Source: a phage
Strand: one strand, 5' to 3'
Length of the DNA: 64,000 nt
Sequence record: PZ452611.1
Shown: in pieces, positions 1,423-61,920 of the stretch
Numbering within the stretch: the stretch's first letter is position 1
Layout: every line of letters starts with the position of its first letter
Notes under the pieces: generated by a model
What the model was told of the DNA's origin: nothing
What the model saw: the letters and a program-made list of their open reading frames with translations, nothing else
Databases searched by the model: none
Program-made: the position numbers and the translations under genes

Positions 1423-1490
1423 GAGACTGTGATAGCCATGTTTTATGATCTTCCTGTAGCACCACCACCTGTTGAACCTGGAGAACTAAG

Positions 1491-3850: not shown

Positions 3851-4040
3851 GCTTAAATCTGCATGGAACATCGCTGTGGGTGATGAGATCCGTATCCCCG
3901 GTGGGAAGACCATTATGAAGATATCTCGTATTGAGTACGAAGGTGACCGTGTATTCCACATCTTCGCAGAAGATGGTCGAGAAATTTATATACAGGCAGG
4001 TTCTCACATTTATATCCGTAAGAAAGGGGACGACAAATGA
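3837..4040 (+). CDS. hypothetical protein
   Basis: 67 aa ORF, AGGAGG RBS, 14 nt overlap with upstream gene. Confidence 0.45.
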   Translation: MQMFKLKSAWNIAVGDEIRIPGGKTIMKISRIEYEGDRVFHIFAEDGREIYIQAGSHIYIRKKGDDK

Positions 4041-4366
4041 CAGAGATCATCATTTCAACTGCAGGGTATGTGTTCCTGACAATCATTGCACTGACTATTT
4101 TGGTGACAGTGTATGGGTTTGTTATCCTTCCTATCCTTGAGACATTTAGTTTGTGTCGGTGTTGGAGAAAAGCTTACGGTCCACAACCATGGAAGGACTG
4201 GCCCCACCTAGTGCGCTTAGCGTTCTCTTATGCTTACGATCACTCCAGCAGTGCATGCATAACCGGATACCACGCCCACAACTGGAGCTGGGAAGGGTTG
4301 AGGAAATGGAATGTTACAAAGACCATACCTCTGCGCATGTACAAACCTAAAAACAAAGACAGCTGA
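4037..4366 (+). CDS. hypothetical membrane protein
   Basis: 109 aa, hydrophobic N-terminus, ATGA overlap with upstream stop. Confidence 0.4.
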   Translation: MTEIIISTAGYVFLTIIALTILVTVYGFVILPILETFSLCRCWRKAYGPQPWKDWPHLVRLAFSYAYDHSSSACITGYHAHNWSWEGLRKWNVTKTIPLRMYKPKNKDS

Positions 4367-4384
4367 TACTTGAAAATTCCTGGC

Positions 4385-4960
4385 ATATCAAGTATAAGGG
4401 GGATTTCTAAAATGGATTTCCTCCTTTTGATATTTCACCGGGCTGGATATTTTAAAATTCTTAGAAAATCAGAAAATGGATCGAAAACTAAAATGGATTT
4501 TTTCAGCACAGGCGCGGAAAATTGTGCCAATCTATCTAGCCGTTTGCACCATATTCGAGATCACCGTTCCAGATTTCCCACACATACACACCTCTCCACC
4601 ATACCTTTCTCCACTCACTCTTAGTGATTTATGACGGAAAACCCATCGCTATCAGTGAGTTGCGGTACAATTTTTCCAGTACTCGATCTACTTTTCATCT
4701 CATGGCTTGGATTTTCTGAAAATTTTTCTCGATAAATTTCTCAGTACTCGATCTGTTTTTCGTTTTCTGAATCGGATTTTCTGGAAATCGTTCCGGAGCT
4801 CGACCTGAAATTTTTGGGGACGAAATCGATTTTTCGTTTTCAGAAATGGATTTTTAAAATTTCTATATGGGAATATTTTATGGGATACTGTTTTATAGGA
4901 AATTGTTACGGAGGGTAATTAGCATGCTAACTAAATTTATGAAATGCGAAAAGTTCTCAT
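4385..4960. repeat. ORF-poor repeat region (AAAATGGATTT x4, GGATTTTCTGRAAAT x2, TACTCGATCT x2)
   Basis: short direct repeats read directly in sequence; no convincing RBS-led ORF. Confidence 0.6.
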
Positions 4961-4974
4961 TTAGAATTTTGAAT

Positions 4975-5190
4975 GATAATCATTCTCGTTTGCAGAATAA
5001 CGGGCACCCCCGGTGATTGTCTCCCGGCCCCTACTGCCCCGGCTTGTTATTATAGTAACACACAGGACAAAGAAAGCAAGAAGTTTTTGCATAAATTTTT
5101 AGACGATAATGATAATCGTTCTCATTTTATGCAGCGCCCATCCCCGGTGGTTGTCTCCCCCGTCACCGGTGCCTGCCGTCCTTTCGATAG
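4975..5190. repeat. two ~55 bp direct repeats (GATAATC..TTGCAG..CACCCCCGGTGATTGTCTCCC)
   Basis: copy at 4975-5030 and 5108-5165; related inverted copy at 13801-13850. Confidence 0.55.
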
Positions 5191-5381
5191 GTATATTGTG
5201 CCACCTGGCGGGGCCGCTGTCAACACTTTTCAAAAAATTTTTCTAACCTGATGCGCTAACCGCTGCAACCTGGCGGGGCCAGCCTGGCAGGACCTAACTG
5301 ACCAGGTAGGAGAGAATGAAGGCTTATAATCTGGTGGGCCTGTGCTATAGGATAGGTAACAATTGAAGAGGAGGTACAAAA

Positions 5382-5564
5382 ATGAAAGGTAATATGATCC
5401 CCCTGGAAAATGTAGCGATTAATGACGCTGAGGCTATCGCCCTGGTTGAAAAGGCTATGGCGGGAGCGTTGGAACATAAAGAAGAGTACGAAAAATGGTG
5501 GTTAACCTGGCGGGGGCGGCGGCTGGAGAATTCTGCCCAAAAAATAATTTTAACTAATGGTTGA
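5382..5564 (+). CDS. hypothetical protein
   Basis: 60 aa, GAGGAGG RBS. Confidence 0.5.
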   Translation: MKGNMIPLENVAINDAEAIALVEKAMAGALEHKEEYEKWWLTWRGRRLENSAQKIILTNG

Positions 5565-5643
5565 CAGCTCGGACAGTTCTTGTTATTCTTATCCTCGCAA
5601 GGTGAACAACACCACACTAATTAACAGAGAGGATAAAAAAATC

Positions 5644-5841
5644 ATGAACGCCTACGGAATCAAAGTACGTCGCAGCACTCGCCAGGTGGTCACCGATCAA
5701 ATGGTTTGCCAGGTGGACGTAACCATCAACAACGGGCAAGGCCTTTATAAATTTCGTCGCGGTCATAGCTATACCCTGCAACAGCTTAATCGTTGCGCCC
5801 TGACAAAAGGTCAGATCAACCACTGGTTTAATAAAAAATAA
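5644..5841 (+). CDS. hypothetical protein
   Basis: 65 aa from internal ATG with GAGAGGA RBS (track ORF starts 5557). Confidence 0.5.
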   Translation: MNAYGIKVRRSTRQVVTDQMVCQVDVTINNGQGLYKFRRGHSYTLQQLNRCALTKGQINHWFNKK

Positions 5842-5844
5842 GTA

Positions 5845-5873
5845 TTGACATATAGTCCGACACCAAATACACT
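5845..5873 (+). promoter_or_regulatory. sigma70-like promoter TTGACA-N17-TACACT
   Basis: consensus -35 and near-consensus -10 upstream of gene 5906. Confidence 0.5.
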
Positions 5874-5905
5874 AAAAGCACAAAAGACACTAAGAGGATA
5901 AAATC

Positions 5906-6304
5906 ATGAAAACCACTACCTTTAATTTTGATAATGCAGACTTTTCTTTTTCTGATGTCAAGAACTGCCGCCGTGATCGTGGATTTTACAAGGCTTATAA
6001 TCTGGTGGGCCTGGACGATGACAATAATTTGCACGAAGTAGCTGAGATCCGGTATTATGCCGCCGCCAGTGGGAACACTTACTACTGCGTTTTTTGGATA
6101 CACGACAACAAGAACAATAAGTACGGCTATACTGGCGGCAAGGCAAGCGGTCACGGTTATGATAAAGCTAACGCAGCACTTGAGAGCGCATTAAATGCCA
6201 TGGGGATCACTGCCGACGGCTGGATCTACGAAGAAGAGTTTTTGTCGGCACTTGCTGACCACCTAGGCTATAAAAAGCACATTGTAACATGCGCCCACGA
6301 ATAA
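5906..6304 (+). CDS. hypothetical protein
   Basis: 132 aa, AAGAGGA RBS. Confidence 0.55.
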   Translation: MKTTTFNFDNADFSFSDVKNCRRDRGFYKAYNLVGLDDDNNLHEVAEIRYYAAASGNTYYCVFWIHDNKNNKYGYTGGKASGHGYDKANAALESALNAMGITADGWIYEEEFLSALADHLGYKKHIVTCAHE

Positions 6305-6310
6305 AAATCA

Positions 6311-6338
6311 TTGACACGCTGCAAAATTTAAGTAAACT
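6311..6338 (+). promoter_or_regulatory. sigma70-like promoter TTGACA-N16-TAAACT
   Basis: followed by 5'UTR hairpin GGCGGGAAtgttTTCCCGCC (6349-6367) and RBS. Confidence 0.5.
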
Positions 6339-6386
6339 AGACACAAAAGGCGGGAATGTTTCCCGCCAGCACAAAGGAAAAAGATC

Positions 6387-6791
6387 ATGAATAAGAACGT
6401 ACGCCGCATCATGAACGAGTTGGCAAACGATGAAAAAATTATTGACATGCATTTGATCAACATTTGCCGCCGTTGTGTAACATATAACAACCGCGCCGCA
6501 AAAGCGCGTGAGATGAACGCAAAAGGCACCTTAAAGCCATTCCAGGTGGTGGTAAAGGCCATTAAAGATGTAACTAATACGGCAAACCAGGTACAGGGGA
6601 ACACCAACGAGAGTACCAATATTGATCCGGCTTACATCATGAAACGGATCCGGACCTGCAAGAACAAAGAGCAAGTGTATAATGTCATAGACTGGTTGGA
6701 TTCTATGGGCGATGTGGTTTACAATAGGTTTTCTGCAGCTATCGAGATCCAGCTTGACAGGTTGGACGGTAAAGTACTAAAAACTTACTAA
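6387..6791 (+). CDS. hypothetical protein
   Basis: 134 aa, RBS AAAGGAAAAAG. Confidence 0.55.
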   Translation: MNKNVRRIMNELANDEKIIDMHLINICRRCVTYNNRAAKAREMNAKGTLKPFQVVVKAIKDVTNTANQVQGNTNESTNIDPAYIMKRIRTCKNKEQVYNVIDWLDSMGDVVYNRFSAAIEIQLDRLDGKVLKTY

Positions 6792-6793
6792 GT

Positions 6794-6838
6794 TTATTTT
6801 TAGATGGCCTTGACTCCAGGGCCATCGATAAAGTAAAC
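6794..6838. promoter_or_regulatory. conserved palindromic cassette TTTTTAGATGGCCTTGACT-CAGGGCCATC-ATAAAGTAAAC (copy 1)
   Basis: near-identical 45 bp element also at 7424-7470 and 11166-11210; inverted repeat GATGGCC/GGCCATC flanks TTGACT. Confidence 0.6.
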
Positions 6839-6871
6839 TAATCCCAGTTAAGCGAAAAAGGAGGCTTGAAG

Positions 6872-6991
6872 ATGAGCACTACACGCCAACACACAAAGGT
6901 AACGATTATCGTTTGCATCATTGGTTACATCCTGGCGCAAATGTTGATGGGTAGCGCCAATGATTTCGCAAAATTTTTCTTAGACTTTTAA
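6872..6991 (+). CDS. small hydrophobic peptide (39 aa)
   Basis: AAAGGAGG RBS then ATG; single predicted TM; below track length cutoff. Confidence 0.4.
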   Translation: MSTTRQHTKVTIIVCIIGYILAQMLMGSANDFAKFFLDF

Positions 6992-7071
6992 TTGACAAGC
7001 TAACTTAAATCAGTATAATACTAAGCACATAAACGGGAAAACTTCCCAGAACACCAAAAGGAGAAAACATT

Positions 7072-7422
7072 ATGAATACTTCCATCACTATGACCGCCGA
7101 AGAAAAAGCCCTGCAGATCGCCGCTCTGAAAAAACAGATTGCAGAACTTGAAGACAAGATCGACAATTTTGAAATCGACGAAGACAAATACGACGATAAA
7201 TATGATGAATGGTTGGACGAGATCTACGGCGAAATTATGATCGGAAACATTTCTTTTCTTCCGTCGCGTATCCTCAAGGAGCTAGATCCTATCGCTTACC
7301 GCTGCGGATTTAGCGACTACATCGACAGCCTGGATATTGAGGACGATGAAGAATACCAGGAATTACAGACAGAGCTTGAAGAAGTGAAAGAAGAGCTTGC
7401 AGAACTGGAAGAAAACGAGTAA
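7072..7422 (+). CDS. acidic coiled-coil protein
   Basis: 116 aa, AAAGGAGAAAACATTATG. Confidence 0.55.
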   Translation: MNTSITMTAEEKALQIAALKKQIAELEDKIDNFEIDEDKYDDKYDEWLDEIYGEIMIGNISFLPSRILKELDPIAYRCGFSDYIDSLDIEDDEEYQELQTELEEVKEELAELEENE

Positions 7423-7423
7423 A

Positions 7424-7470
7424 TTTATTTTTAGATGGCCTTGACTTCAGGGCCATCAATAAAGTAAACT
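7424..7470. promoter_or_regulatory. conserved palindromic cassette (copy 2)
   Basis: same 45 bp element as 6794-6838. Confidence 0.6.
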
Positions 7471-7511
7471 TTAGACTGTTAACACTTAACCAATACAGAG
7501 GAGTTAAAACC

Positions 7512-7757
7512 ATGGCCGCACTAATTACCAAATATTATGCCCCTACCAACACCAAAAGCGCCCGTATCATGGTAAAAGGCTTCGGACGTAAAAAGGTGTA
7601 CACCTGGGATTATTCCCTAGACATGGAAGACAACTACACCAACGCGATGACAGATTTTATTAATGAGCTGAACACGCGGATCTTGACAAATTATAAAATT
7701 ACCGATATTGCCTATATAGGGGAAGGCGGGATCTGTTTTGTCGGTATCGTCAAATAA
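7512..7757 (+). CDS. hypothetical protein
   Basis: 81 aa, GAGGAG RBS. Confidence 0.5.
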   Translation: MAALITKYYAPTNTKSARIMVKGFGRKKVYTWDYSLDMEDNYTNAMTDFINELNTRILTNYKITDIAYIGEGGICFVGIVK

Positions 7758-7833
7758 ACTGTTTTTTCGGTGGTCCTGGTAGCAGGGCCATCTATAAAGA
7801 TAGTTTATCAGCACAATGAAAGGAGAAAGTAAC

Positions 7834-8187
7834 ATGATCAGCGGGGCAAGTTTTATTATTGGCGCTATTGCTACGGCTTTAATTGTAAACAAGATCCAAT
7901 CCAAAAACGAAAAAGAGAGCAACGCGCTTACAGAATACCCATTTTGGGTATTCAACGACAATGAAGACTACATTATCAAGTACAAGGATGAGAAAGGGGA
8001 CCAGGTAACACCGAGACCGATCCCAGCTTACAAGATGCAAGAAACATTATACCGCTTAAAGGCTGGCGGCGCAAAAATCGTAGACTTTTGGGGATATGAT
8101 TGCAAGGATCAGGAGACTATAAAACGTCGTATCCGGGCGATTCAGGCAAATATTGAGATCAGTAAAGGGGGCGTTTATGAAAATTAA
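7834..8187 (+). CDS. hypothetical protein with N-terminal TM
   Basis: start moved to ATG 7834 after AAAGGAGAAAG RBS (track 7816). Confidence 0.5.
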   Translation: MISGASFIIGAIATALIVNKIQSKNEKESNALTEYPFWVFNDNEDYIIKYKDEKGDQVTPRPIPAYKMQETLYRLKAGGAKIVDFWGYDCKDQETIKRRIRAIQANIEISKGGVYEN

Positions 8188-8374
8188 TTTCGAAAAAATT
8201 GTAAAGCGCCCCCACGATTCCGAAGAGCTGCCGGAACGCCGCCAGCGTAACAATAAACTGAATAAACCGAAAAGGTTCGGGAAGATCTGGAGAAATCACT
8301 ATGATCGCAAATTACCGGGCCTGCTTTTGGAACGTGAACGACAGGCGGAACGATACCGCCACAAAGACAAATAG
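8177..8374 (+). CDS. small basic protein
   Basis: Arg/Lys-rich 65 aa; internal ATG after AAAGGGGG. Confidence 0.4.
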   Translation: MKINFEKIVKRPHDSEELPERRQRNNKLNKPKRFGKIWRNHYDRKLPGLLLERERQAERYRHKDK

Positions 8375-8382
8375 CAACCAAC

Positions 8383-8410
8383 GCCCCGCCATTGTGCGGG
8401 GCTTTTTATT
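8383..8410 (+). terminator. rho-independent terminator
   Basis: GCCCCGCC-attgt-GCGGGGC followed by TTTTT. Confidence 0.7.
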
Positions 8411-8555
8411 TCTATCCCGCCGATAGCGCCCCTGGTTGGCCCTACAAGCGCCATAAAGGCCCCTACCTATGCAATCCCCTTTCTTAACCTGAAAACAGCG
8501 TCTAGGGCCGTTTTATGGCGTTAAAAATATTATTGACAGTAATTCTATTTAAAGC

Positions 8556-8584
8556 TTGACACCTTGGGATAGTCCGGATATACT
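8556..8584 (+). promoter_or_regulatory. sigma70-like promoter TTGACA-N17-TATACT
   Basis: second TTGACA at 8533; upstream of gene 8620. Confidence 0.5.
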
Positions 8585-8619
8585 AACCACATCAAAGCAA
8601 GAAGGAAGGAGTAAACGCC

Positions 8620-8880
8620 ATGCGTAAATTAAAAAATTTTGATAAAGTAGATGTTGTCCTGAATAATTTTTACTACTGCAATAATAAAGCCGTTTGGTGG
8701 CGTGATAGTTCCACCGATAAAGTTAAAGCGCGCTTTCTCCAAGGGCACTGGCAAGGCCGCCCAGTGATTAAAATCTCGGGGCAATTGGTAGCGTTTAAAA
8801 ATTGCCGCCGTGTTGATGACGTTGAAGAGATTCTAAACATTTTACGCCACAATAATTTAAAAAATAGTGTTGACAAGTAA
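8620..8880 (+). CDS. hypothetical protein
   Basis: 86 aa, GGAAGGAG RBS. Confidence 0.5.
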   Translation: MRKLKNFDKVDVVLNNFYYCNNKAVWWRDSSTDKVKARFLQGHWQGRPVIKISGQLVAFKNCRRVDDVEEILNILRHNNLKNSVDK

Positions 8881-8897
8881 GTCTCAATAAGTATACT
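8870..8897 (+). promoter_or_regulatory. sigma70-like promoter TTGACA-N16-TATACT
   Basis: followed by hairpin GGCGGGAAaacTTCCCGCC (8908-8926). Confidence 0.5.
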
Positions 8898-8954
8898 TAA
8901 ACACACAGGCGGGAAAACTTCCCGCCACTAACAAAGAAAATAGGAGAAAATATC

Positions 8955-9578
8955 ATGACCACCGTTAACATTACCACAGGTTACAATTTAGCTTTCGACG
9001 TGCTGACCGACGAACAAAAAGAAAAAGCCGTTGAAATGGTCCGAGAAAGAGAAGAACACAGCGGGGATAACTTTTTTGCAGAAAGTGTAATTGAAGACTA
9101 TAAAGAATATGTCTTTCCAGAGTATGGCCTTGAAGATACCAAGGTACATTGGTCCGGCTTTTGGTGCCAGGGTGACGGCGCGTCAATCAGTGCGGAAAAC
9201 GTGGATTTAGAAAAATTCTTGCGTAAAGTAAAGGCCCTGACCAAGTTCCGATCAATTCGTCACTTGTTCGGCACAATGCACGATGGCGAGCTATCCGCAA
9301 GTGTTGAGCGTGATCCATATAGCCGCTATAGTCACGAAAACACTGTAAGCGGGTACATCGATACTACATGGCTAGACCTGACCGCCAAACAAGAAAATAA
9401 AGTGGAAGATCTGGAAGAGCTGATCACCGAGACGGTACGGGAGCTATCCCGCAAGGTTTACGTAGACCTGGAGGAGGCCTATCTAGAACAGTTCACTACC
9501 GAAAACCTGATCGGCCTTATTGAGGCCAATGATTGGCGGTTTGATGTGGATGAATATGGAGAGATGAGTTTTTCATAA
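8955..9578 (+). CDS. hypothetical protein
   Basis: 207 aa, TAGGAGAAAATATCATG. Confidence 0.6.
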   Translation: MTTVNITTGYNLAFDVLTDEQKEKAVEMVREREEHSGDNFFAESVIEDYKEYVFPEYGLEDTKVHWSGFWCQGDGASISAENVDLEKFLRKVKALTKFRSIRHLFGTMHDGELSASVERDPYSRYSHENTVSGYIDTTWLDLTAKQENKVEDLEELITETVRELSRKVYVDLEEAYLEQFTTENLIGLIEANDWRFDVDEYGEMSFS

Positions 9579-9667
9579 ATAAAGTGTTGCAATAATCTAA
9601 AAACCTGCTATATTAAAACTCAAGGGGCAAGACGTTTGCCCCCACACAAAACAAAGAGGAAAACATC

Positions 9668-14992: not shown

Positions 14993-15412
14993 ATGAACAT
15001 TAAATCTAATAATCCGGCATATAGCTTTGATAACGCTTTTTGTCACGGTCCGGCGGCGAAAGGATTCGAAATCGATGGTAAACTAATTATTGTCAATGTT
15101 GACGGGGAAGAGGTTGCAGTATATCCGGTGGCAGACGTTAAAAGCCGTTTGCAATGCCGCATGGATGTTACCGCCTACCAGCTTGATCCGGTCCGCATAG
15201 TTGCCCTGGTCCTGGAGGAAGAGATCAAAGCCATGCATCATAGCAATAAGTTTATCGGTGACGCGCAAGATAATATGAAGGTATGCCGCTATAAAGTTAA
15301 TGAAGTGCTTAAAGAATACGGCTTCAAAGATCTGATGATCAAGCGTGATGAAAAATTCCGTTATCGTAACGACCTGGCAAATCGAATCTATGAAATATAC
15401 GAATCATTATAA
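14993..15412 (+). CDS. hypothetical protein
   Basis: 139 aa, TAAGAGG RBS; last gene of + early block. Confidence 0.55.
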   Translation: MNIKSNNPAYSFDNAFCHGPAAKGFEIDGKLIIVNVDGEEVAVYPVADVKSRLQCRMDVTAYQLDPVRIVALVLEEEIKAMHHSNKFIGDAQDNMKVCRYKVNEVLKEYGFKDLMIKRDEKFRYRNDLANRIYEIYESL

Positions 15413-15429
15413 TTTCTTAACTAAACTAT

Positions 15430-15459
15430 CAGGGGCTTTAAAAGGCCCCTTTCTTTTGT
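15430..15459 (+). terminator. rho-independent terminator
   Basis: AGGGGC-ttttaaaa-GGCCCCT followed by TTCTTTTG. Confidence 0.7.
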
Positions 15460-16059
15460 CTGTATTTCTCCTACCACAAACGGCCCAGCCTGGCAAGTGG
15501 AATAATTGACTAGCCAGCAATTACCAACACTGTACAAATATACATATAAAATAACTATTGCATAATCTTTCATCTTGTGGTAGCAGGGCCATTTTTACAC
15601 GTTTTCCTTCCAAAATTGCACGTAATGCAGCTATTGCATAAAATTTAACCTGATGCACATCTTCAATAGCTTGTCAACAACTAAAAATCTTTATAAGTCA
15701 TACACTTACATAACCACAAAAGCGTGTTCTACGTGAAAAATCGAGTATAACTATAGCCGCCAGATCTCAGAATTTACGTACGCTCACCATTCTATAGTCT
15801 GCTAAGTATTTATTCCAACCATAGAATAACAGAATAGTCAATACCTGCATAAAATAATTATTCGTGTAAACTGCATAACATAAATCAGCCGGGGTGTCAA
15901 CATTTTTCGTAAACGGCTCGAAATTATCACTGTGAGCTATCATAAACAGAGAAATCTTTAGTCGTCTAATGTTTACTGTACGTTACTATACTAACTGGAA
16001 TCATTAGATGACTAATAAAAAGATAAGAAATCATTAACAATGCAATTGTTTTATTCATA

Positions 16060-16395
16060 ACAATAAGGCAACTATGCAAACGAATGGCATGGCGCGACGG
16101 AGTCGCGACATAATATAAAAGCAGTAACCATCACCCCCGTGATAGTTTGTCTGCAAACTATTAATCAGATCATAGTTGCCTTGTATTTAGTTAATCATGA
16201 CATAAACTCAGGCATAGCCTTCGTCTCGAGGATGTTAACAAGCAAGGCAACTATAGATCTTCTAATAGTTGCCCTGCTTTTATATTATGTCATAGAAACA
16301 CCCGAAGGGGTGACCAAAGGTCACCTGGCATAGCCAGTGAAATATTGTAAACAAGTTAATTATTATCATGCAAACGAATGGCATGGCTTATCATC
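16060..16395. repeat. repeat cluster: TGCAAACGAATGGCATGGC x2 and GGCAACTAT/ATAGTTGCC x4 in alternating orientation
   Basis: read directly; no coding support. Confidence 0.55.
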
Positions 16396-16560
16396 TCTGT
16401 GTAAATAGTTTGTTTGTAAACAGTTTATACGTGAACAGTTAGCTGTGTAAACTATCAGGCATGTAAGCTATTGAGCATGTAAACAGTAAAGGTCGTGAAC
16501 AGTAAGCGAGCGAATAGTAATGGCGTGAACAATGACAGCGTAAACAGTCAGGCATGTCAA
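16395..16560. repeat. iteron-like array, about 9 copies of GTRAAYAGT at 12-17 bp spacing
   Basis: GTAAATAGT, GTAAACAGT, GTGAACAGT, GTAAACTAT, GTAAACAGT, GTGAACAGT, GCGAATAGT, GTGAACAAT, GTAAACAGT. Confidence 0.6.
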
Positions 16561-18016
16561 TTATGTTCAGTGTGTCACCATTATGTCATATTGTGTCAGA
16601 CAAGTTTTTCTCCTCTTTGTCAAGTGCTGCATGAAAAATTTACAATCTGGTATGGTAGCATTTTTGCGGCCCTGTTTACATTCAGTACTGTATGTATAAG
16701 CCTTGTTGTGTGGGCGCTTAGACGTCTAGACGGTTGGAAGTCTGCAGGTCAATATCTAATCTATTGGTTGCTAACTATATCCCACACAAATAGTAAGAAA
16801 TGCAATTGTTATATGCGTAAACTGTAACTCATGTTATCAATCCCTGTATGGATCGCCAGTGGTGCGCATAATAGGTATTATGTTAAATTGCCAGTAATGA
16901 TAACTATTCTCACAGTGATAGGTATTCTCATTCAACCCCACAAGATAGGTTGCAAATGTTGTGCCACTGTGTGAACGGCCTCGCCTATTAATTTGCCTCA
17001 CTGCCTCGATATTTGAGAATTATTATAAGAATGAGAAGTATTCCCATTTCGTCCGCCTGGCAGCACTCCTGTAGGTCAGGTCAAAATCGGGAGAGAACTG
17101 GACCTGTTCAGATATTTCTGGCTGGCTCTTCAGGTCTGTGTGGGAAAAGCCGACCCCTCCGGCGGCGGGGAGGGGGTCAATTAAAAAATTTACGGGGCAT
17201 ATGAAGCGCTCTTCAGGTAAGGCATGTATTATGGGATGAAACCCTCTTCAGGAAATGATATTTGTGGGTGTGATATTTGCTGGAAAGCTAGATATGACTG
17301 GACTCCTGGCGGGGCAGGGGTAGTACAGACAGGGGAAATATGGGGGATGTAGTTGGGTAAATTGATCAGGCAGGTAGAGTATGGAATATGTTACGAGTAT
17401 GTTAAATATGGAGGGTGAATATCTGCAGGATTTGTGTGTAAAATCAAAGACTTAAGTGGTGTTGTGGTATTTTCTATAAATAATTCAAGTTTAATAGGTG
17501 ATATTTGTCCCTATCCACTTTGTGTGGTAAACAGATTCAGATGAGATTGGTTTACGAGTGTATACATAATATACAAATTAAAGATACAAGAAACCCCCCT
17601 CCCCCTTCGGCTACCATTCACCTTTTCCTCTGACTGGTACTTAAACACTTATTCAGACTCTTCAGGTTATCACCCATATATCATATGGCAGTGACTGGTG
17701 TCCTCCGGCCCCTCTTTCGTCACCCGTCCGCTTCGCCATGCTAATGCCATAGCCAATGGTTCGGTTGTTCACCCTGTTCACTCAGGTGTATCTCCATACC
17801 CCTTCAAACCGAAGAGAACAGAAAACCCGAATTACTCGGTAAAAGAAAAGAGAAGAACTTAATTTTATCAGGATAAGCAAGAATGTCAAGGCATGACTGC
17901 TCACTAAACAAGCAAACAGTCATGTGTGGGAGGTAAGTGATTGTGGTGGTAGGAAATTTAGTTGAAAGATGTGTTATAGGTGCTCCCAGCACTTTAGCCG
18001 GGTAGCTAATTGTGTG

Positions 18017-50576: not shown

Positions 50577-51842
50577 TTATTCCAGCACCTCCCAAGTTTC
50601 TGGATTAAGATTGCGGAATGCGATACCCACAGGGAATTGAGGCACACCGTCCACCGTACGCTGTTGGAATTTTATCGTGATAAATTTGCCAACATATGAG
50701 CAGCATTTTTCGTAGTTCCTTACGGCAAAAGTGCCTTTCATTTTGCATTTGCATTGTGTCCCATCTTTCTCTTCGCAGATAAGAACACCTTCCCCGTTTT
50801 TATCTTTTTCAACACCGATCACTTTTGCTTCAACATCGGTGAACAGTTTCCACTTGAGCAGATCAGTAGAGCGTTGACCGTATTCGTAGGTGCCACGGAA
50901 GTTACGAATAATAGATCCTTCATAACCTTCCTGCATGTACTGTCCGATGGAGTTGCGAACCTCTTCCTCGTTGTAGGAGATCTTGAAAGGAACACCCTCG
51001 ACGTTGGTGAGATGGTTAACTTCACAATAATCAATAACTTCCTGAAGATTTGTGGCCCGATCTTCCCAGCGATGGATGCAATCAGGAACATCGAACACCA
51101 TCAGTTTCAGGTCATAAGAGCAGTAACCTCCATACCGATCAGAATCACGGACAGGTTCTTCATAAACCGGATGATCAACCTTGTTGAAGTCTTTCCATGT
51201 CTCCTCTCCGGCCTTGATCGCTTTCTCACGGCGTTTTATGTCTGCCATGAAATCCTTATCAATTTCTTTCTCAATGTCTTCCAGACTACGCCATTTCTTA
51301 ACGAGGGAGGTTATTTTCTGCAACGGTAAACCGTGAATGTAGAACTCCCCATCAAATTCATCAAAGCCTGTTTCTTCATGCAGGTCTTGTAGCTCACGGA
51401 GGATGTTACCTTTCGGCTCATACACTTTGTTACCGCGAGAGATGAATTTAGGTACACCGTCTACGAATTTGACAAAGCAACGGTTCCCGTCAAGTTTGTG
51501 TTGCAGGTGGCATGGATACACAATAGCGTGTGGTTTTTTCGAAGCATCTTGCGCCAGCATAGGTGAAATGTCAATGGCCTCAAGGTCTTCGACATTTTCT
51601 TTGTAACCCAGCCGGACTTGCTTTTCCCATTTAGACTGCGCCTCTAAAACAGCTTGTTCTTCTGCTGTAGTTTCGTTGGATCGCCCGATGTTTTTGGCTT
51701 CACATTTTGTGGTTTTTGATTGTACAGCGCCACCAACCCTGCCGAACACAACAATAACCTCGTTGCCGCTTGTATCTACTTTCCACATCTGGATGGACCC
51801 GTCTTTATTGCGAGCATAAAGTGTTGTTTTGAATTGATGCAT
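50577..51842 (-). CDS. ATP-dependent DNA ligase
   Basis: KLDGNR motif I; C-terminal EGSIIRNF...GQRS and PQFPVGIAFR match virus-type ligases. Confidence 0.8.
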   Translation of the reverse strand: MHQFKTTLYARNKDGSIQMWKVDTSGNEVIVVFGRVGGAVQSKTTKCEAKNIGRSNETTAEEQAVLEAQSKWEKQVRLGYKENVEDLEAIDISPMLAQDASKKPHAIVYPCHLQHKLDGNRCFVKFVDGVPKFISRGNKVYEPKGNILRELQDLHEETGFDEFDGEFYIHGLPLQKITSLVKKWRSLEDIEKEIDKDFMADIKRREKAIKAGEETWKDFNKVDHPVYEEPVRDSDRYGGYCSYDLKLMVFDVPDCIHRWEDRATNLQEVIDYCEVNHLTNVEGVPFKISYNEEEVRNSIGQYMQEGYEGSIIRNFRGTYEYGQRSTDLLKWKLFTDVEAKVIGVEKDKNGEGVLICEEKDGTQCKCKMKGTFAVRNYEKCCSYVGKFITIKFQQRTVDGVPQFPVGIAFRNLNPETWEVLE

Positions 51843-52406: not shown

Positions 52407-52469
52407 AACTTTCTACCTCACTTGCATACTTTCCGAAACAAGTAAAGCCGGGTAATCCCGGCTATGTTG

Positions 52470-53183
52470 TTAAATATACTCTGTTACATCCTTGAAGCTC
52501 GAAGGCTTCATGATCTTACCTTTACTGTCAAGGAATATGATAACTTTATTACCGTTGTAGAATTCTTCCTTGGCAACAAAACCTTCATATCGACCATCAA
52601 AGCGTCGTTCAAGATCTTTAATCTCCAACTCGATTAGTTGTTCAGCAGGCATATCTGCACTGGCACCGTGTGAATACCGTAGATGGTTGACCCGTGCAAA
52701 CTTGCTGTCATTCGATTTGAGAACCTTACGCATCATCCCGCACACATCGCCGCGAAGCTGGAACAGCAAAGCTGTTGACAACTCTGCTAAGCGGTAAGCA
52801 GACGCTCTTTGCTTAGAGGTGTTTTTCGCAGCGATCAGTGTATCATAGAACTCGCCGATCTTGAACTTAAGACCTCGCGGATTATCAAACAGGTTTGACC
52901 ACTTTTCGTGATTATCATTAACAAGATAAGCGGCATAACTTGTGACAACGTGAAGATCGCAGGCCTCTTTTAGCAGGTGATCTCCACCATCACCTTTCTC
53001 CAGCTCTTCCAAAACCTCATTGAACTCTTCCTCAATGAAGCTAAGCTGTAATTCGAATGGTGTGTATGATTTTTTCACTTTAGCTGCCACACGGTTCCAG
53101 TTTTCCACCCAATTGGCAGACCAAAGGTAGTTTTCAGGCTGAGACAGTTTTTCCAGGTTGTCGATCAGTTTAGTATTCAGCAT
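52470..53183 (-). CDS. MazG-like nucleotide pyrophosphohydrolase, putative
   Basis: FIEEEFNEVLEELEKGD...LKEACDL resembles MazG EExxE/D box; weak. Confidence 0.35.
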   Translation of the reverse strand: MLNTKLIDNLEKLSQPENYLWSANWVENWNRVAAKVKKSYTPFELQLSFIEEEFNEVLEELEKGDGGDHLLKEACDLHVVTSYAAYLVNDNHEKWSNLFDNPRGLKFKIGEFYDTLIAAKNTSKQRASAYRLAELSTALLFQLRGDVCGMMRKVLKSNDSKFARVNHLRYSHGASADMPAEQLIELEIKDLERRFDGRYEGFVAKEEFYNGNKVIIFLDSKGKIMKPSSFKDVTEYI

Positions 53184-53196
53184 TAAAGGTCTCCTT

Positions 53197-53958
53197 TTAA
53201 AGTTCCATAAAGTTTTCTACAGTTTCAATAAATGCTTTATCAGAGAAAGCGTCAACAGCACCGTTAAACCATACAGGGATCCCGCGATCCTCATATTGAT
53301 AAAGGTCGCTACGTGAAATGCCACTTCCATCTGCACTCTGCGAATCATACTTGTTTACAATCAGCAGTTTTGTTCCTTTACAAGTAGCAGGAAACAATTC
53401 CCAGTTAAAATTAATAACTGTGTTAGAACAACCCACTAGGATCACCATATCATTGCTGGTGAGAGATGTCAACAGGTCATACATGTCTGTATACTTAGGA
53501 GCAACCTCGCCGAAGAACACTACATTGGGCTTAACCCAGGTATACTTGCCTGTATCTACCTCCGTGTATCCGATATTTTTAATTACATCATTACCTTCAG
53601 CATCTTCGTAGGTGATTTCAGGCAAATACCCGTGGACATGTAAAATATCTTCATGTTTTACACCAGCACGCTCCAGCAAATCATCTACATTGGTGGTAAG
53701 GTTGATCACACGACCAGACCAGCGGGAATACCACTCAGCGATCCGAAGATGTGCAAGGTTAGGATCAACACTGCCCAGAGCTACACGACGTGCATTGTAA
53801 AAGTCATGCACCTTATAGTAGTTCTTGGCAAAGGTGTGGATGTTGCACACCTCATCGATGCTGAAATTCTCCCACATTGCAGTGCTACCAGATCGGAAGG
53901 TGGGAATACCAGATTCTGCGCTCAAACCAGCACCAGAAATAACAATAAGTCGTCGCAT
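53197..53958 (-). CDS. Sir2-family NAD-dependent deacylase / ADP-ribosyltransferase
   Basis: ISGAGLSAESGIPTFR sirtuin signature, HG motif. Confidence 0.8.
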   Translation of the reverse strand: MRRLIVISGAGLSAESGIPTFRSGSTAMWENFSIDEVCNIHTFAKNYYKVHDFYNARRVALGSVDPNLAHLRIAEWYSRWSGRVINLTTNVDDLLERAGVKHEDILHVHGYLPEITYEDAEGNDVIKNIGYTEVDTGKYTWVKPNVVFFGEVAPKYTDMYDLLTSLTSNDMVILVGCSNTVINFNWELFPATCKGTKLLIVNKYDSQSADGSGISRSDLYQYEDRGIPVWFNGAVDAFSDKAFIETVENFMEL

Positions 53959-53966
53959 AAATGTCC

Positions 53967-54317
53967 TTAGTAGATGTTTTGTTTGATCTCTATTCCAAAC
54001 TTCTTGAATGAGTCAGCAGCAAGCATAAATTTACGAGCTGCCGATGGATTAGAAGTATGCACGAAAATAATCACGTTGTCAATAAGTGGTGGCTTTCCGA
54101 ATACAAGTTTCTCCTCTAGCGCAGAGAAGCAGTCGTACCCTTCAAGAACTTCACCTAGATCATTGTCAAAATACCATTCAGATACGCGTCTGTAGAGCTT
54201 TCTCTTATCATTAAGAAAATCCATAAATTCAGAAGAATTCTTTAGCCACAGAGCGTCTGGGAGTCCATAATCTGACGGATCTCTAAAATCATCAAGCCAC
54301 ACAATCCACTTCTTCAT
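53967..54317 (-). CDS. hypothetical protein
   Basis: start set to internal Met MKKWIVW overlapping RNA ligase stop (track 53967-54389). Confidence 0.4.
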   Translation of the reverse strand: MKKWIVWLDDFRDPSDYGLPDALWLKNSSEFMDFLNDKRKLYRRVSEWYFDNDLGEVLEGYDCFSALEEKLVFGKPPLIDNVIIFVHTSNPSAARKFMLAADSFKKFGIEIKQNIY

Positions 54318-55249
54318 TGCATATAGTCCTCGTTGTGGAAATAGCAGTCCAGTATCTCGCGACGCTCCTGCTCTAATAAGCAATTCCACACATCTTCTGT
54401 ATAGTTGCTACGAATAAATTTTACCATACCGTAAAACTCCTCGTCAACACGTTTAAAAATATCGTCATCCCAAATCTTCCATGCTTTACCTCTCATTACG
54501 GCCTTCCGTGCCAAATAGTATGGAGACTTGATCTTCAGCTGCAGGTCATAAGGGTAGTAAGGCTTACGGATCATATACCCTTCGCCCCTTGTTTCTGCAG
54601 CTAATTCTTTTGCATAGCTGAACGGGATTTCACGCACAGTGTGAGGACGTTTTGCACCAAGGTATTTGGCAATCCCATCTAAAGCTGCTTCTGGTAGCAT
54701 TATTCCAGAATCATTATATCTGCAACCTATCAAATATGCGCCATGGTCTTCTTGAACAATATGCGGATCTGAAGGGTGACAAATTTCAAACATGAATGTC
54801 ATGTTTTCATTGCCCATAACCTTCTTGATAAGATCTAAATCACCACATTGCTCTTGGATGGTTTCCTTTGCAAGGTTACAATATGGAGAATCAAGAGACC
54901 CGGTTGTTGAGAACAATAGGTCACCTTTATGAGATGATACCACACCAAGGAATCCGTTCTTTTTCTCTACCGCAGTAACAAGTTTACTGTCCGGTAGGTT
55001 GGTGGAGTTTTCTCCTAAGTTGAATACTTTTGTGAAAGGCCATGCCACAACATTCCCCTCATTGCCAACAACAATACCTCGGCACTCCAGTAAACGCGGA
55101 GACAAATGCCACAGATTGTTGTAGAATACTTTTCTGGCATATTTATAGATCTTTAATCCAAGATCTGGATAATACCGACTGGTTACAAGACCTTTGTCTA
55201 CTAGGTCATCTGCATTAAAATACTTCATCATACGTTCCTCATTTGTCAT
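54314..55249 (-). CDS. RNA ligase, T4 Rnl1-like
   Basis: LLECRGIVV and KVFNLGEN match T4 Rnl1 (LPDALECRGIMF, KFFNLNEN); nucleotidyltransferase KxNG motif EKKNG. Confidence 0.8.
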   Translation of the reverse strand: MTNEERMMKYFNADDLVDKGLVTSRYYPDLGLKIYKYARKVFYNNLWHLSPRLLECRGIVVGNEGNVVAWPFTKVFNLGENSTNLPDSKLVTAVEKKNGFLGVVSSHKGDLLFSTTGSLDSPYCNLAKETIQEQCGDLDLIKKVMGNENMTFMFEICHPSDPHIVQEDHGAYLIGCRYNDSGIMLPEAALDGIAKYLGAKRPHTVREIPFSYAKELAAETRGEGYMIRKPYYPYDLQLKIKSPYYLARKAVMRGKAWKIWDDDIFKRVDEEFYGMVKFIRSNYTEDVWNCLLEQERREILDCYFHNEDYMQ

Positions 55250-55349: not shown

Positions 55350-55760
55350 ATGTCTAAAATGCTATATATCGTGCGTGGTCTGCCAGGGTCTGGCAAATCA
55401 ACACTGGCAAATGCGCTATCTTTAGAAGGTCTGTATCCACATTTTGAGAACGACATGTTCTGGTATGACGATGACGGCAATTACAACTGGGATGCAAGTA
55501 AAGTAACACTCGCAGCAAAATGGTGCAAAGATAACGTAGAAGATATGATGCGTATGGGATACGACCGTATCGTGGTAAGTAATACGTTTACAAAAGAAAA
55601 ACATGTGCAGGAATATGTTGACATGGCAATCAGTCATGGGTATAGTTATACCGTGATCGTGGTTGAAAACCGCCACGGTAATAAAAGCATTCATGATGTT
55701 CCAGACAAGGTTGTGGATCGTATGGAACGCCAGCTTAAAAACTGCATTAAACTTAAATGA
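55350..55760 (+). CDS. P-loop polynucleotide kinase-like protein
   Basis: LYIVRGLPGSGKST Walker A as in T4 Pnkp kinase domain; start moved to Met after GGAGG (track 55293). Confidence 0.6.
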   Translation: MSKMLYIVRGLPGSGKSTLANALSLEGLYPHFENDMFWYDDDGNYNWDASKVTLAAKWCKDNVEDMMRMGYDRIVVSNTFTKEKHVQEYVDMAISHGYSYTVIVVENRHGNKSIHDVPDKVVDRMERQLKNCIKLK

Positions 55761-55767: not shown

Positions 55768-56322
55768 ATGAAATACTTTGTAACAAGCGACACACACTTT
55801 CTCCACCAGCGGGTCATGGAGTTTGATTCATGTCAAAAACACAGATCTCAGTATGATCACAATCTTGACAGTATGAATGCGGGAATCATCGCCGAGTGGA
55901 ACTCTGTTGTGTCACCTGCAGACACTGTGTTCCACTTGGGAGATATTGCGTGCACTAATGATAAGAATATCAACAAATTACTTCCAGATATTCTAAATAT
56001 GTTGAACGGACATATTATTCTTGTTCGTGGCAACCATGACACAAGGACGACTGTCAGAATTATGAAAGAGTTCTATCACGAGGTTGTAGATTATTACGAG
56101 CTTCGCCACAACAAGAATTTGATCTGTATGAGCCATTACCAATTTGCAAAGTGGAACAGAAAGCCTCACGGATCAGTCCAACTGTTCGGTCATGCTCACG
56201 GAACCACACAACAGTTGTTTGGCAGGCAGCTTGATGTCGGTTGGGATGTGTGGGGGAGACTCTTACCATTAGAAGAGGCATACCGTACTGCAATGAGTTT
56301 TGATATTGACAGCAGGGAGTAA
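55768..56322 (+). CDS. calcineurin-like metallophosphoesterase
   Basis: DTHF, GDIA, VRGNHD motifs; start moved to MKYFVTSD (track 55663). Confidence 0.7.
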   Translation: MKYFVTSDTHFLHQRVMEFDSCQKHRSQYDHNLDSMNAGIIAEWNSVVSPADTVFHLGDIACTNDKNINKLLPDILNMLNGHIILVRGNHDTRTTVRIMKEFYHEVVDYYELRHNKNLICMSHYQFAKWNRKPHGSVQLFGHAHGTTQQLFGRQLDVGWDVWGRLLPLEEAYRTAMSFDIDSRE

Positions 56323-59239: not shown

Positions 59240-59314
59240 GCCCTGTTAGCTTAGTGGATAAAGCAGCGGCCTTCTAAGCCGTTGACACTGGTTCGAGTCC
59301 AGTACGGGGTGCCA
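59240..59314 (+). tRNA. tRNA-Arg (anticodon TCT)
   Basis: hand-folded cloverleaf: 7 bp acceptor with two G-U pairs, anticodon loop CTTCTAA, T-loop TTCGAGT, CCA encoded. Confidence 0.75.
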
Positions 59315-59318
59315 AATT

Positions 59319-59405
59319 GGGGAGTTATCCCGTAGAGGTAGCGGTGTAGACTGTAAATCTATTGTCATTGCGACTCGGGTGGTTCGACTCCACCACTCCC
59401 CACCA
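59319..59405 (+). tRNA. tRNA-Tyr (anticodon GTA)
   Basis: perfect 7 bp acceptor GGGGAGT/ACTCCCC, loop CTGTAAA, long variable arm, T-loop TTCGACT, CCA. Confidence 0.8.
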
Positions 59406-59519
59406 AATTTATATTTTTAGATGCATAAATAATACAGATAATGGCATTGATATTTATCGTCGTTTATACTAGTCACTAACTGCTCGAAAATCAGTGTCAT
59501 TATCAGTATAATTTATAAA

Positions 59520-59610
59520 GGAGGGTAGGGAGCAATGGTGCTCAAGCGGTCTTGAAAACCGTCCCGTTGAGGATGACTCGATGATGGTTCGATTCCATTA
59601 CTCTCCGCCA
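59520..59610 (+). tRNA. tRNA-Ser (anticodon TGA)
   Basis: acceptor GGAGGGT/ACTCTCC, loop CTTGAAA, long variable arm, T-loop TTCGATT, CCA. Confidence 0.75.
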
Positions 59611-59708
59611 CATTGTTGACCTTGTAATTAAGCGAAAGCCGGAAGCAGAACCGGATTATCAAATGTTACAGTCGTCATCGCCGACTAGCAACATGGTCAA
59701 CATACTGA

Positions 59709-59805
59709 GCTAGGTAAGCCCTTTGGCAAGGGCGAGGATTTTTAATCCTGAAAATAGACGAGGTAGTCGTTGAATACATAGGTGGTTCGATTCCATCACC
59801 TAGCA
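59709..59805 (+). tRNA. aberrant tRNA-like element (possible tRNA-Lys TTT-like with about 30 nt extra arm)
   Basis: perfect acceptor GCTAGGT/ACCTAGC, canonical D-arm and T-arm (GGTGGTTCGATTCCATC), anticodon-like loop TTTTTAA, but 30 nt insertion between anticodon and T arms. Confidence 0.35.
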
Positions 59806-59812
59806 CCTTTTT

Positions 59813-59888
59813 GCTGATGTAGCACAATCGGTAGTGCAATTGATTTGTAATCAATAGGTTGTAGGTTCAAGTCCTGCCATCAGCACCA
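59813..59888 (+). tRNA. tRNA-Thr (anticodon TGT)
   Basis: acceptor GCTGATG/CATCAGC, loop TTTGTAA, T-loop TTCAAGT, CCA. Confidence 0.8.
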
Positions 59889-59889
59889 A

Positions 59890-59964
59890 GGCCCTGTAGC
59901 TGGAAGGTTCAAGCAAGCGACTCATAATCGCCAGACGGTGGTTCAATTCCACCCAGGGCCACCA
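59890..59964 (+). tRNA. tRNA-Met (anticodon CAT; Ile-lysidine type not excluded)
   Basis: acceptor GGCCCTG/CAGGGCC, loop CTCATAA, T-loop TTCAATT, CCA. Confidence 0.75.
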
Positions 59965-59975
59965 AATAGTAAATA

Positions 59976-60052
59976 CTCCGCGTAGCTCAGCTTGGTAGAG
60001 CGCCTGATTTGGGATCAGGAGGTCGAGTGTTCGAATCACTCCGTGGAGACCA
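59976..60052 (+). tRNA. tRNA-Pro (anticodon TGG)
   Basis: C1-G72 acceptor, D-arm GCTCAGCTTGGTAGAGC, loop TTTGGGA, T-loop TTCGAAT, CCA. Confidence 0.8.
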
Positions 60053-61156: not shown

Positions 61157-61584
61157 TGTCTAAGATTTACGGACCGTGTTCTGAAAAGCAGAAGATGATC
61201 CTCGAAAACGATGCAGATATCTTGGTAATCGGCGGTGCAGCAGGGTCTGGCAAGTCGTTCCTCTTGCAGTTGATGCCACTTAAAATTATTGATGACCCCC
61301 ACAGCTCTGTGGTTATGTTCCGAAGAACAACCCCACAGTTGGAAGGTGAGGGTGGGCTATGGCCTAAAGCAGTAGCTATTTATAGTGATCTGCCTGAAAA
61401 CATTAAGCCAAAGTTTAGAGAGAAGGATCATAAGTTCATTTTTCCACGGTTTGATCCGAACACTGGCAAGTGGGATAGAAGCAAAAAGGGAGCTGTTGTA
61501 AAATACTGCCACATGGAGTATGTACAAGATAAGCTTAACCATCAGGGGCTTGAGTACACCATGGTTTGCTTCGATGAGGGTTAA
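61156..61584 (+). CDS. terminase large subunit, exon 1 (ATPase N-terminus)
   Basis: Walker A GGAAGSGKS, Walker B-like CFDE; frame closes at TAA inside putative intron. Confidence 0.6.
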   Translation: MSKIYGPCSEKQKMILENDADILVIGGAAGSGKSFLLQLMPLKIIDDPHSSVVMFRRTTPQLEGEGGLWPKAVAIYSDLPENIKPKFREKDHKFIFPRFDPNTGKWDRSKKGAVVKYCHMEYVQDKLNHQGLEYTMVCFDEG

Positions 61585-61587
61585 TTT

Positions 61588-61920
61588 GTAGCTCTCGTAA
61601 AACCTCCCTAATTGCGGGGAAATCTTTATTATTGACACCACCAACCTGTTATGGTAACATAATAGAGGCTTCGAAGAGAGATCGAAGGTATGGTAACAGT
61701 GTGTTAATTTAGATAATCCGCAGCGAAGCATCCGAGAGGATGAACGTTCAACGACTAGTCGAAAGACGTAGAATCAAGCGATTCGAAACGGGAGGGTAAG
61801 CGATTGTTGTCGCTTATAAGATATAGTCTGGTCTGCATGGAGACATGCAGCTGCCTGAGAATGGCGGGGCAAGACTAGCGACCTTGCCTGAACATAAACG
61901 ACACAATTCGAATGGGAGCA
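61588..61920 (+). mobile_element. group-I-like intron 1 (no ORF), boundaries approximate
   Basis: ORF-free insert between terminase frames; shares AATTGCGGGGAAATC and ATAGTCTGGTCTGCATGGAGACATGCAGC blocks with second insert. Confidence 0.5.

Follow-up and report, generated by a model that had tools for sequence, protein, structure and literature searches.

A sirtuin without zinc-binding cysteines beside the RNA-repair genes of Escherichia phage V5, and what it may act on

Sirtuins belong to the most intensively studied enzymes that depend on nicotinamide adenine dinucleotide (NAD), and to our knowledge every validated sirtuin acts on proteins or on NAD itself. What, then, could be the substrate of a sirtuin that a phage encodes among genes for RNA repair? 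The question is raised by a phage DNA stretch of 64,000 nucleotides (PZ452611.1; the whole stretch is hereafter called the window), which contains the sirtuin gene gp080 (rv5_gp080, YP_002003582) of Escherichia phage V5 (rV5, Vequintavirus). The encoded protein is 100% identical to that of V5, and the record annotates rv5_gp080 as "Sir2 (NAD-dependent deacetylase)"; "Sir2-like" is also given for it in GenBank. The gene is annotated and its RNA-repair context has been published, so gp080 is already known; with the gene and the functional hypothesis both in the literature, its recognition by a scan of the sequence adds little. The protein belongs to a large, mostly phage-borne clade that has lost two features held to be universal in sirtuins, the zinc site and the Gln of the TQNID motif. 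Among the functions considered here, an NAD-dependent step in RNA-end repair is tentatively ranked first.

Identity and conserved residues of gp080

The open reading frame of gp080 comprises 253 codons from ATG to TAA on the minus strand (positions 53197-53958), and an AAGGA ribosome-binding site can be read in the sequence 6 nt upstream of the ATG. The product matched the Pfam family SIR2 (PF02146) with the E-value 6.9e-28 (98.2 bits, cut-off 24), covering profile positions 1-178 of 180. It also matched PHROG 2162 "Sir2" (E=2e-108) and, among sequences in the PDB, E. coli CobB (1s5p, E=2.4e-21). These scores exclude a chance match. The gene was found in 119 phage records, and 992 homologues were recognized in a large protein database, with the catalytic positions invariant in those that were aligned. 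gp080 is a genuine, single-domain phage sirtuin.

The gp080 sequence was aligned with CobB and with first 17 and later 47 homologues (50-93% identity). The Rossmann motif GAGxS...GIPxFR is present as GAGLSAESGIPTFR, and the residues G9, A10, G11, S16, F21, and R22 of the NAD loop are invariant among 48 clade members. Further invariant positions are R58, G110, F149, E151, G176, S178, and N202. In the alignment, Y54 and R57 correspond to Y92 and R95 of CobB and to Y102 and R105 of SIRT5. This Tyr/Arg pair of class III sirtuins binds acidic acyl groups, a role described for SIRT5 (PMC9499238).

Two features of other sirtuins are missing from gp080. The Gln of TQNID, which binds NAD and is universally conserved in sirtuins (PMC9499238), is replaced by Thr89 in the alignment. 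No Cys is present between amino acids 111 and 143, where CobB has its zinc cysteines, and the three Cys of the whole protein (amino acids 38, 177, and 194) form no CxxC motif. Judged from the sequence, the NAD-binding and catalytic apparatus is kept in full and the zinc site has been lost.

The loss is not peculiar to gp080. Searched exhaustively, a set of 1.84 billion representative proteins yielded 5,528 matches. In an alignment of 257 proteins, Thr89 is accompanied by zero or one Cys in the zinc-ribbon segment in 152 and Gln by at least three Cys in 73, while 17 are mixed, although these counts are not phylogenetically independent. Thr89 is found in 98% of the zinc-less clade, and Gln in 73 of the 73 zinc-containing relatives. 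Y54, R57, N90, D92, and H109 are nearly invariant in both groups (in the zinc-less group, 151/152 for Y54, 146/152 for R57, 151-152/152 for N90 and D92, and 152/152 for H109). Thr89 is the only strongly clade-specific residue. The loss of the zinc cysteines and the change from Gln to Thr co-occur across a large clade that is mostly of phage origin.

The AlphaFold2 model of gp080 has a predicted local distance difference test (pLDDT) score of 88.5 and a predicted template modeling score of 0.87. The place of the zinc ribbon is taken in the model by a beta-hairpin (strands 110-118 and 124-128, pLDDT about 93). With this model as a query, Foldseek returned CobB first (template modeling score 0.75-0.84), followed by Af1 Sir2, SIRT2, and SIRT5, with E-values down to 2e-18. 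The model and the fold search support a sirtuin fold composed of a Rossmann domain and a small domain.

Profile searches narrow down the assignment. The curated CobB-type models of NCBIfam all matched gp080 far below their cut-offs; the best, NF001753, gave 123 bits against a cut-off of 243, and the CobB equivalog model 105 bits against 320. No SIR2 match was obtained with the PADLOC defense models, and Pfam SIR2_2 scored 13.2 bits (cut-off 24.5). For these reasons gp080 is neither a bacterial deacylase equivalog nor a defense-type NADase; its sequence indicates descent from class III (CobB/SIRT5-like) sirtuins.

A preliminary description of the window, made from the sequence alone, had reported a phage-encoded Sir2 homolog carrying GAGLSAESGIPTFR, and the Pfam, PHROG, and CobB matches bear this out. 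It had also drawn attention to two sets of residues: the catalytic His is conserved as His109 in 152 of 152 zinc-less members, and the zinc-binding Cys are absent from gp080 and from its clade. No loss of NAD-binding or catalytic residues appeared, since the NAD motif, Asn90/Asp92, and His109 are invariant. Placement in a non-sirtuin Rossmann family is rejected, as every profile, PDB, and fold match is a sirtuin, of the CobB/SIRT5 type in both the sequence and the fold searches. As to the background given there, NAD-depleting bacterial defense, gp080 is not related to the defense SIR2 families, which gave no PADLOC match and a SIR2_2 score below the cut-off. The identity of gp080 as a defense-type SIR2 NADase is rejected on the same grounds and for want of a partner domain. 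Membership in the Tpt1/KptA family is likewise rejected, as Pfam, the PDB, and Foldseek gave SIR2-type matches only.

Some database labels of these genes deserve a comment. Eighteen unannotated records (MG065654-MG065682) are named "Campylobacter phage", with C. jejuni as the host, and are 99.0-99.5% identical to V5 at gp080; a mis-assigned host or contamination of the deposits is the most likely explanation. One Klebsiella phage homologue (P0040) is labelled "tail assembly protein". In T5, RefSeq gives the name "Sir2 (NAD-dependent deacetylase)" to T5.105 (positions 7142-7648 of the T5 loci L003 and L078), which Pfam identifies with 73 bits as a HAD_SAK_2 phosphatase; the gene that does encode the T5 sirtuin is T5.102.

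Gene neighborhoods and possible reactions

The preliminary description placed the sirtuin gene next to RNA-repair genes, and domain searches confirmed a T4 Rnl1-type RNA ligase, a cREC domain protein, a kinase, and a phosphoesterase (Table 1). The Rnl1 and cREC genes overlap by 4 nt, 8 nt lie between the cREC stop codon and the start of Sir2, and 13 nt separate Sir2 from the gene for a MazG-like pyrophosphatase, whose start is preceded by an AAGGAG site. A hairpin directly after MazG is a probable terminator; it is a consensus match only, and terminator-like sites are in total no more numerous in this region than expected from shuffled sequence. From the tight spacing and this hairpin, Rnl1, cREC, Sir2, and MazG look like one transcription unit. 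In a sigma-70 scan, nothing upstream of Rnl1 on the minus strand made a convincing promoter, and the overall number of matches agreed with that expected from shuffled sequence. A cluster of tRNA genes lies approximately 3 kb from the kinase, phosphoesterase, and RNA ligase genes, and the phage therefore combines, within a single region, enzymes for tRNA repair and tRNAs that serve as replacements.

The generality of this link was examined in 76 related loci from viral contigs, by means of iterated profile searches that started from the neighbors in V5 and in T5. Approximately 16 loci, from rV5-like and Mydo-like phages of 140-150 kb, show the order phosphoesterase, Rnl1, (cREC), kinase, Sir2, DNA ligase, and MazG. 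This V5-type module is kept down to 44% Sir2 identity, through rearrangement of the kinase and phosphoesterase genes. In approximately 31 T5-like loci, genes for the HAD_SAK_2 "Swiss Army Knife" RNA-repair phosphatase and for DUF7415 proteins are found near the zinc-less sirtuin; in T5 itself the HAD_SAK_2 gene begins 323 bp downstream of the sirtuin. The contexts of several more distant members are listed in Table 1, and a layout in jumbo phages with 2H, Nudix, cREC, and PIN was reported by Iyer et al. 2022 (PMC9503650). RNA-end repair is the most recurrent theme of these contexts, seen in three independent layouts but not in all members. A second theme is the metabolism of NAD and ADP-ribose.

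From these data, it is proposed that gp080 may provide an NAD-dependent step in the phage repair of cleaved RNA, the removal of a 2'-phosphate in the manner of Tpt1; a rough probability of 0.38 is assigned to this reading. The substrate would mainly be tRNA that anticodon nucleases of the host have cleaved. In a scheme that follows Iyer et al. 2022, cREC or the phosphoesterase would first open the cyclic 2',3'-phosphate end, leaving a 2'-phosphate. An oxygen of the 2'-phosphate would then attack C1'' of NAD in the sirtuin pocket with departure of nicotinamide, and His109 would activate the ribose 2''-OH, which would attack the phosphorus. The ADP-ribose by-product could be cleared by cREC and the MazG-like pyrophosphatase, and the kinase and Rnl1 would finish healing and sealing. 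By analogy, the two steps would be those that sirtuins perform on acyl-lysine, with the same net reaction as Tpt1/KptA.

This reading is ranked first because it explains the operon, the repeated association with enzymes for cyclic-phosphate and phosphate ends, and the pyrophosphatases. In two of the layouts the sirtuin is found together with a pyrophosphatase (MazG here and Nudix in jumbo phages), which fits a by-product of the ADP-ribose type. The RlaP, HAD_SAK_2, and cREC neighbors in unrelated lineages, the invariant Tyr54/Arg57, whose counterpart in CobB and SIRT5 binds anions, and the tRNA genes nearby are also counted in its favor.

A considerable number of observations weigh against it. 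We know of no sirtuin with a demonstrated activity on RNA phosphates, and the literature search returned no experimental paper on phage sirtuins, Tpt1-like sirtuins, follow-up of cREC, or active sirtuins free of zinc. The kinase, phosphoesterase, and Rnl1 already form a complete T4-type heal-and-seal set, which leaves no 2'-phosphate. The rV5-like and Mydo-like loci are related and share their synteny, so that together they amount to roughly one evolutionary observation. No homologue of Rnl1, cREC, the V5-type kinase, or MazG was found at E<=1 in positions 1-112,000 of T5, the remainder being the terminal repeat. Approximately 14 loci, including the phi92-like groups, have no RNA-repair neighbor within 6 kb and contain only DUF7275, DUF7277, and unknown proteins there, and other clade members lie beside NAMPT, PARP, or a PrkA-SpoVR module.

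The protein itself speaks against RNA binding to some extent. Basic residues gained specifically in the clade, which would be a sign of RNA binding, were looked for and none was found; only Thr89 stands out. The zinc-less clade is acidic, with a median isoelectric point of 5.1 and a net charge of -12, compared with an isoelectric point of 6.3 for the zinc-containing relatives. Such acidity is unusual for an RNA-binding enzyme, but net charge is weak evidence on this point, because the Rnl1 of V5 is slightly acidic too. Finally, a solitary zinc-less sirtuin with the motif TSNVD is encoded on the 4.5 Mb chromosome of Marinobacterium sp. YM272 (CP194171; positions 6001-6723 of the extracted locus L080), where its flanking genes encode an AIM24-family and an OmpA-like protein and phage genes are absent from the vicinity. 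The zinc-less clade is therefore not exclusively viral.

Part of this evidence is shared by the main rival of RNA-end repair, a CobB-like NAD-dependent protein lysine deacylase that would remove acyl groups, probably with a preference for acidic ones such as succinyl or malonyl, or for acetyl, from host or phage proteins during infection, in which the hairpin replaces the zinc ribbon and function is kept. The Marinobacterium gene stands alone, as expected of a housekeeping deacylase, RNA-repair neighbors are missing around many phage members, T5 has no Rnl1-type ligase, and the clade is acidic. Moreover, gp080 is closest in sequence and structure to E. coli CobB, SIRT5, and Af1 Sir2, all residues for deacylation are invariant (F21, R22, N90, D92, H109, the FGE loop, and Tyr54/Arg57), only one pocket residue (Thr89) is clade-specific, and the small domain is confidently modeled without zinc in the predicted structure. 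Against these points, both the zinc cysteines and the conserved NAD-binding Gln are lost, and we know of no validated deacylase that lacks both. The scores against the CobB-type NCBIfam models lie far below the cut-off, and deacylation leaves the tight Rnl1/cREC operon and the recurrent RNA-repair, NADAR, and pyrophosphatase neighbors unexplained. A deacylase is a serious candidate, if a somewhat unlikely one. If gp080 were a zinc-free deacylase, phages would edit the acyl-proteome of the host and the zinc ribbon would be dispensable.

The second theme of the contexts bears on another explanation, in which gp080 would be an NADase or an ADP-ribosyltransferase acting on NAD, a protein, or a small molecule. 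It could reshape the NAD and ADP-ribose pool, make or destroy a signal, or modify a host factor in takeover or counter-defense. Clade members are found next to NAMPT, NADAR, and PARP, V5 encodes a Macro-domain protein (rv5_gp204) as well as the pyrophosphatase directly downstream of the sirtuin, and the substitution of Gln together with the remodeled small domain could loosen the coupling to acyl-lysine. Zinc-less sirtuin domains of defense systems are NADases. However, gp080 has no similarity to the defense-type SIR2 NADase models and scores below the SIR2_2 cut-off, depletion of NAD would harm the phage, and no NAD-salvage gene is annotated in the approximately 75 kb of the V5 record between its first 56 kb and its last 8 kb. 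The gene rv5_gp204 is the only Macro gene and lies approximately 51 kb from the sirtuin, outside the operon, and none is adjacent to gp080. The invariant Tyr54/Arg57 argues for a specific anionic macromolecular substrate. An activity of this kind is improbable. A toxin of the SirTM type (ADP-ribosylating sirtuins linked to Macro proteins) with a Macro antidote is rejected, as the neighbors of gp080 are cREC and MazG and the Macro gene is distant.

Deacylation of an RNA-linked substrate, such as N-acetyl-aminoacyl-tRNA produced by GNAT-type toxins or N4-acetylcytidine (ac4C) in tRNA, would agree with a pocket near-unchanged from class III and with a gene among tRNA-repair and tRNA genes, and is very improbable; the heterogeneous contexts of the clade and the acidity of the protein weigh against it.

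To return to RNA-end repair, a wider claim can be attached to it, that the zinc-less Thr89 phage sirtuins are the first with a nucleic acid as the physiological substrate, and that they are counterparts of Tpt1 with a different fold, which use NAD to take the 2'-phosphate off tRNA after its breakage or re-ligation. It is doubtful that this claim is correct, and the idea of a nucleic acid substrate has already been published as a prediction. If an RNA substrate were true, sirtuin chemistry would reach nucleic acids and the phage response to tRNA-cleaving defenses would have a new arm; phages would gain an RNA repair branch of the yeast type against host anticodon nucleases.

Further features of the window

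Read on the opposite strand, the window corresponds to roughly 58-122 kb of NC_011041, and at its far end the two are out of register by 7 bp. When window positions 1-2400 were compared, coordinates predicted from the RefSeq V5 record as 1484-1909, for example, were observed at 1491-1916. The shift of 7 bp in the coordinates therefore indicates a small indel relative to NC_011041 somewhere between approximately 2.4 kb and 42 kb of the window.

The gene rv5_gp204 (window 1906-2364, plus strand) is annotated as "Tk.4 phosphatase", and its product has a Macro domain (Pfam Macro, 25.9 bits; cut-off 22). Its best NCBIfam match is the macrodomain of the DarG antitoxin (E 6e-12, below the cut-off). 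It could process ADP-ribose products or reverse DNA ADP-ribosylation of the DarT type.

A region of approximately 2.6 kb (window about 15410-18015; V5 104013-106618) has no annotated gene and no open reading frame longer than 110 amino acids. Iteron-like repeats of the GTAAAC type with 16-nt spacing are present at 16431-16487 and recur at 16540 and 16817. Two perfect repeats were also found, a direct one of 20 nt (16074 and 16368) and an inverted one of 18 nt (16107-16124 and 16274-16291). By its sequence, the region looks like a replication origin or a regulatory region between divergent gene blocks.

A group I catalytic intron was detected at window positions 61572-61850 on the plus strand, where it matches the full-length Rfam model RF00028 with 84.9 bits. 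The intron is located within the gene for the terminase large subunit, which is given in the V5 record as three joined pieces with an inserted HNH endonuclease gene.

Table 1. Positions of the sirtuin gene, its motifs, and its neighbors in the window, and of zinc-less sirtuin contexts in other loci (numbered within each locus).
Feature	Positions	Strand	Basis or remark
Sir2 (sirtuin) coding sequence, 253 amino acids, rv5_gp080 / YP_002003582	53197-53958	-	Open reading frame; Pfam SIR2; identity to V5; AlphaFold2 model; fold match
NAD-binding motif GAGLSAESGIPTFR, amino acids 9-22	53893-53934	-	Read directly
YNARR, amino acids 54-58, class III Tyr54/Arg57 pair	53785-53799	-	Aligned to CobB FYNARR
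TTNVD, amino acids 88-92; N90 and D92 kept, Thr89 for Gln of TQNID	53683-53697	-	Alignment
HVHG, amino acids 107-110, with catalytic His109	53629-53640	-	Aligned to CobB HMHG
Small-domain segment in place of zinc ribbon, amino acids 111-143	53530-53628	-	Sequence; CobB alignment; AlphaFold2 model
VVFFGE, amino acids 146-151, sirtuin FGE loop	53506-53523	-	F149 and E151 invariant
ATP-dependent DNA ligase	50577-51842	-	Domain search
GC-rich hairpin with T-rich tail, directly after MazG	52446-52463	-	Terminator-like consensus match
MazG-like nucleotide pyrophosphohydrolase, rv5_gp081	52470-53183	-	PHROG 671 E=5e-22; annotation
cREC (cyclic-phosphate-processing receiver domain), rv5_gp079	53967-54317	-	Pfam cREC_REC PF20274 E=9e-14; annotation
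T4 Rnl1-type RNA ligase, rv5_gp078	54314-55249	-	Pfam RNA_lig_T4_1 E=2e-14; PHROG 562 E=9e-66; annotation
P-loop kinase (polynucleotide-kinase-like), rv5_gp077	55350-55760	+ (divergent)	Pfam AAA_33 E=1e-10; PHROG 505 polynucleotide kinase E=5e-10
Calcineurin-like metallophosphoesterase, rv5_gp076	55768-56322	+	Pfam Metallophos E=5e-7; PHROG 547 E=3e-51
Six tRNA genes	59240-60049	+	Rfam
L082, T4-like marine contig	4917-7181		Sirtuin between RlaP nucleotidyltransferase and NADAR
L062, L084	4057-6705		Sirtuin close downstream of NAMPT; RlaP about 4.5 kb away in L084, a T4-like marine contig
L083	6001-8574		Sirtuin near phage WGR-PARP gene, one gene between
L086, 323 kb jumbo phage	4005-9610		Sirtuin inside PrkA-DUF444-SpoVR stress module
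L085, L087			No informative neighbors of zinc-less sirtuin

Comparison with known systems

The SIR2 NADases of defense systems (ThsA, DSR1/2, SIR2-HerA, SPARSA, and KomC of Kongming) belong to the SIR2 superfamily, as gp080 does, and like it have no zinc ribbon. KomC, too, has a nucleotide pyrophosphatase as its partner. Unlike these proteins, gp080 is encoded by a phage in an anabolic or repair context and is a single domain, with neither a sensor nor an oligomerization domain.

Tpt1/KptA resembles the reaction proposed for gp080 in the use of NAD, the release of nicotinamide, the attack of an oxygen nucleophile on C1'' followed by that of the 2''-OH, and the association with RNA ligase; the likeness is one of analogy, with the Tpt1 mechanism taken from two papers (PMC6097658, PMC6573784). 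The folds differ, since Tpt1/KptA has the ADP-ribosyltransferase fold and gp080 the Rossmann-type sirtuin fold, and the sequences show no similarity.

CobB (1s5p, 6rxj) is 36% identical to gp080 over 182 residues in a MAFFT alignment (E 2e-21), with a template modeling score of 0.75-0.84. CobB and SIRT5 share with gp080 the GAGxS...GIPxFR motif, N-x-D, the catalytic HG, the FGE loop, and the Tyr/Arg pair for acidic acyl groups. In contrast to them, gp080 lacks the Cys of the zinc ribbon, has Thr in place of Gln, is divergent in the C-terminal 70 residues, and is encoded in a phage RNA-repair operon.

T5.102 (YP_006930, "Sir2-like") is an orthologue with 56% identity and the same TTNVD motif and zinc-less features. 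Its neighborhood differs, as it is located between the nrdD region and the genes for the HAD_SAK_2 phosphatase and two DUF7415 proteins.

The closest precedent is the clade described by Iyer et al. 2022 (Viruses 14:1977, PMC9503650, section 3.7.3), with phage V5 and Proteus phage Mydo as the prototypes of a neighborhood of sirtuin, T4-like RNA ligase, cREC, kinase, and MazG. The cREC domain was defined by the same Iyer/Aravind group in 2021, and two surveys from this group are all that the literature searches on phage, Tpt1-like, and zinc-free sirtuins and on cREC yielded. Removal of RNA 2'-phosphates in the manner of Tpt1/KptA was proposed there (PMC9503650). All five neighbors of that clade (Rnl1, cREC, kinase, MazG, and calcineurin-like phosphoesterase) are found at gp080, with no adjacent Macro gene; gp080 is the same gene, and nothing is different in kind. 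What is added to that work is the coupling of the loss of the zinc Cys with the change from Gln to Thr, the limits of the operon, the condition of T5 without Rnl1, and the contexts outside RNA repair, including the bacterial copy.

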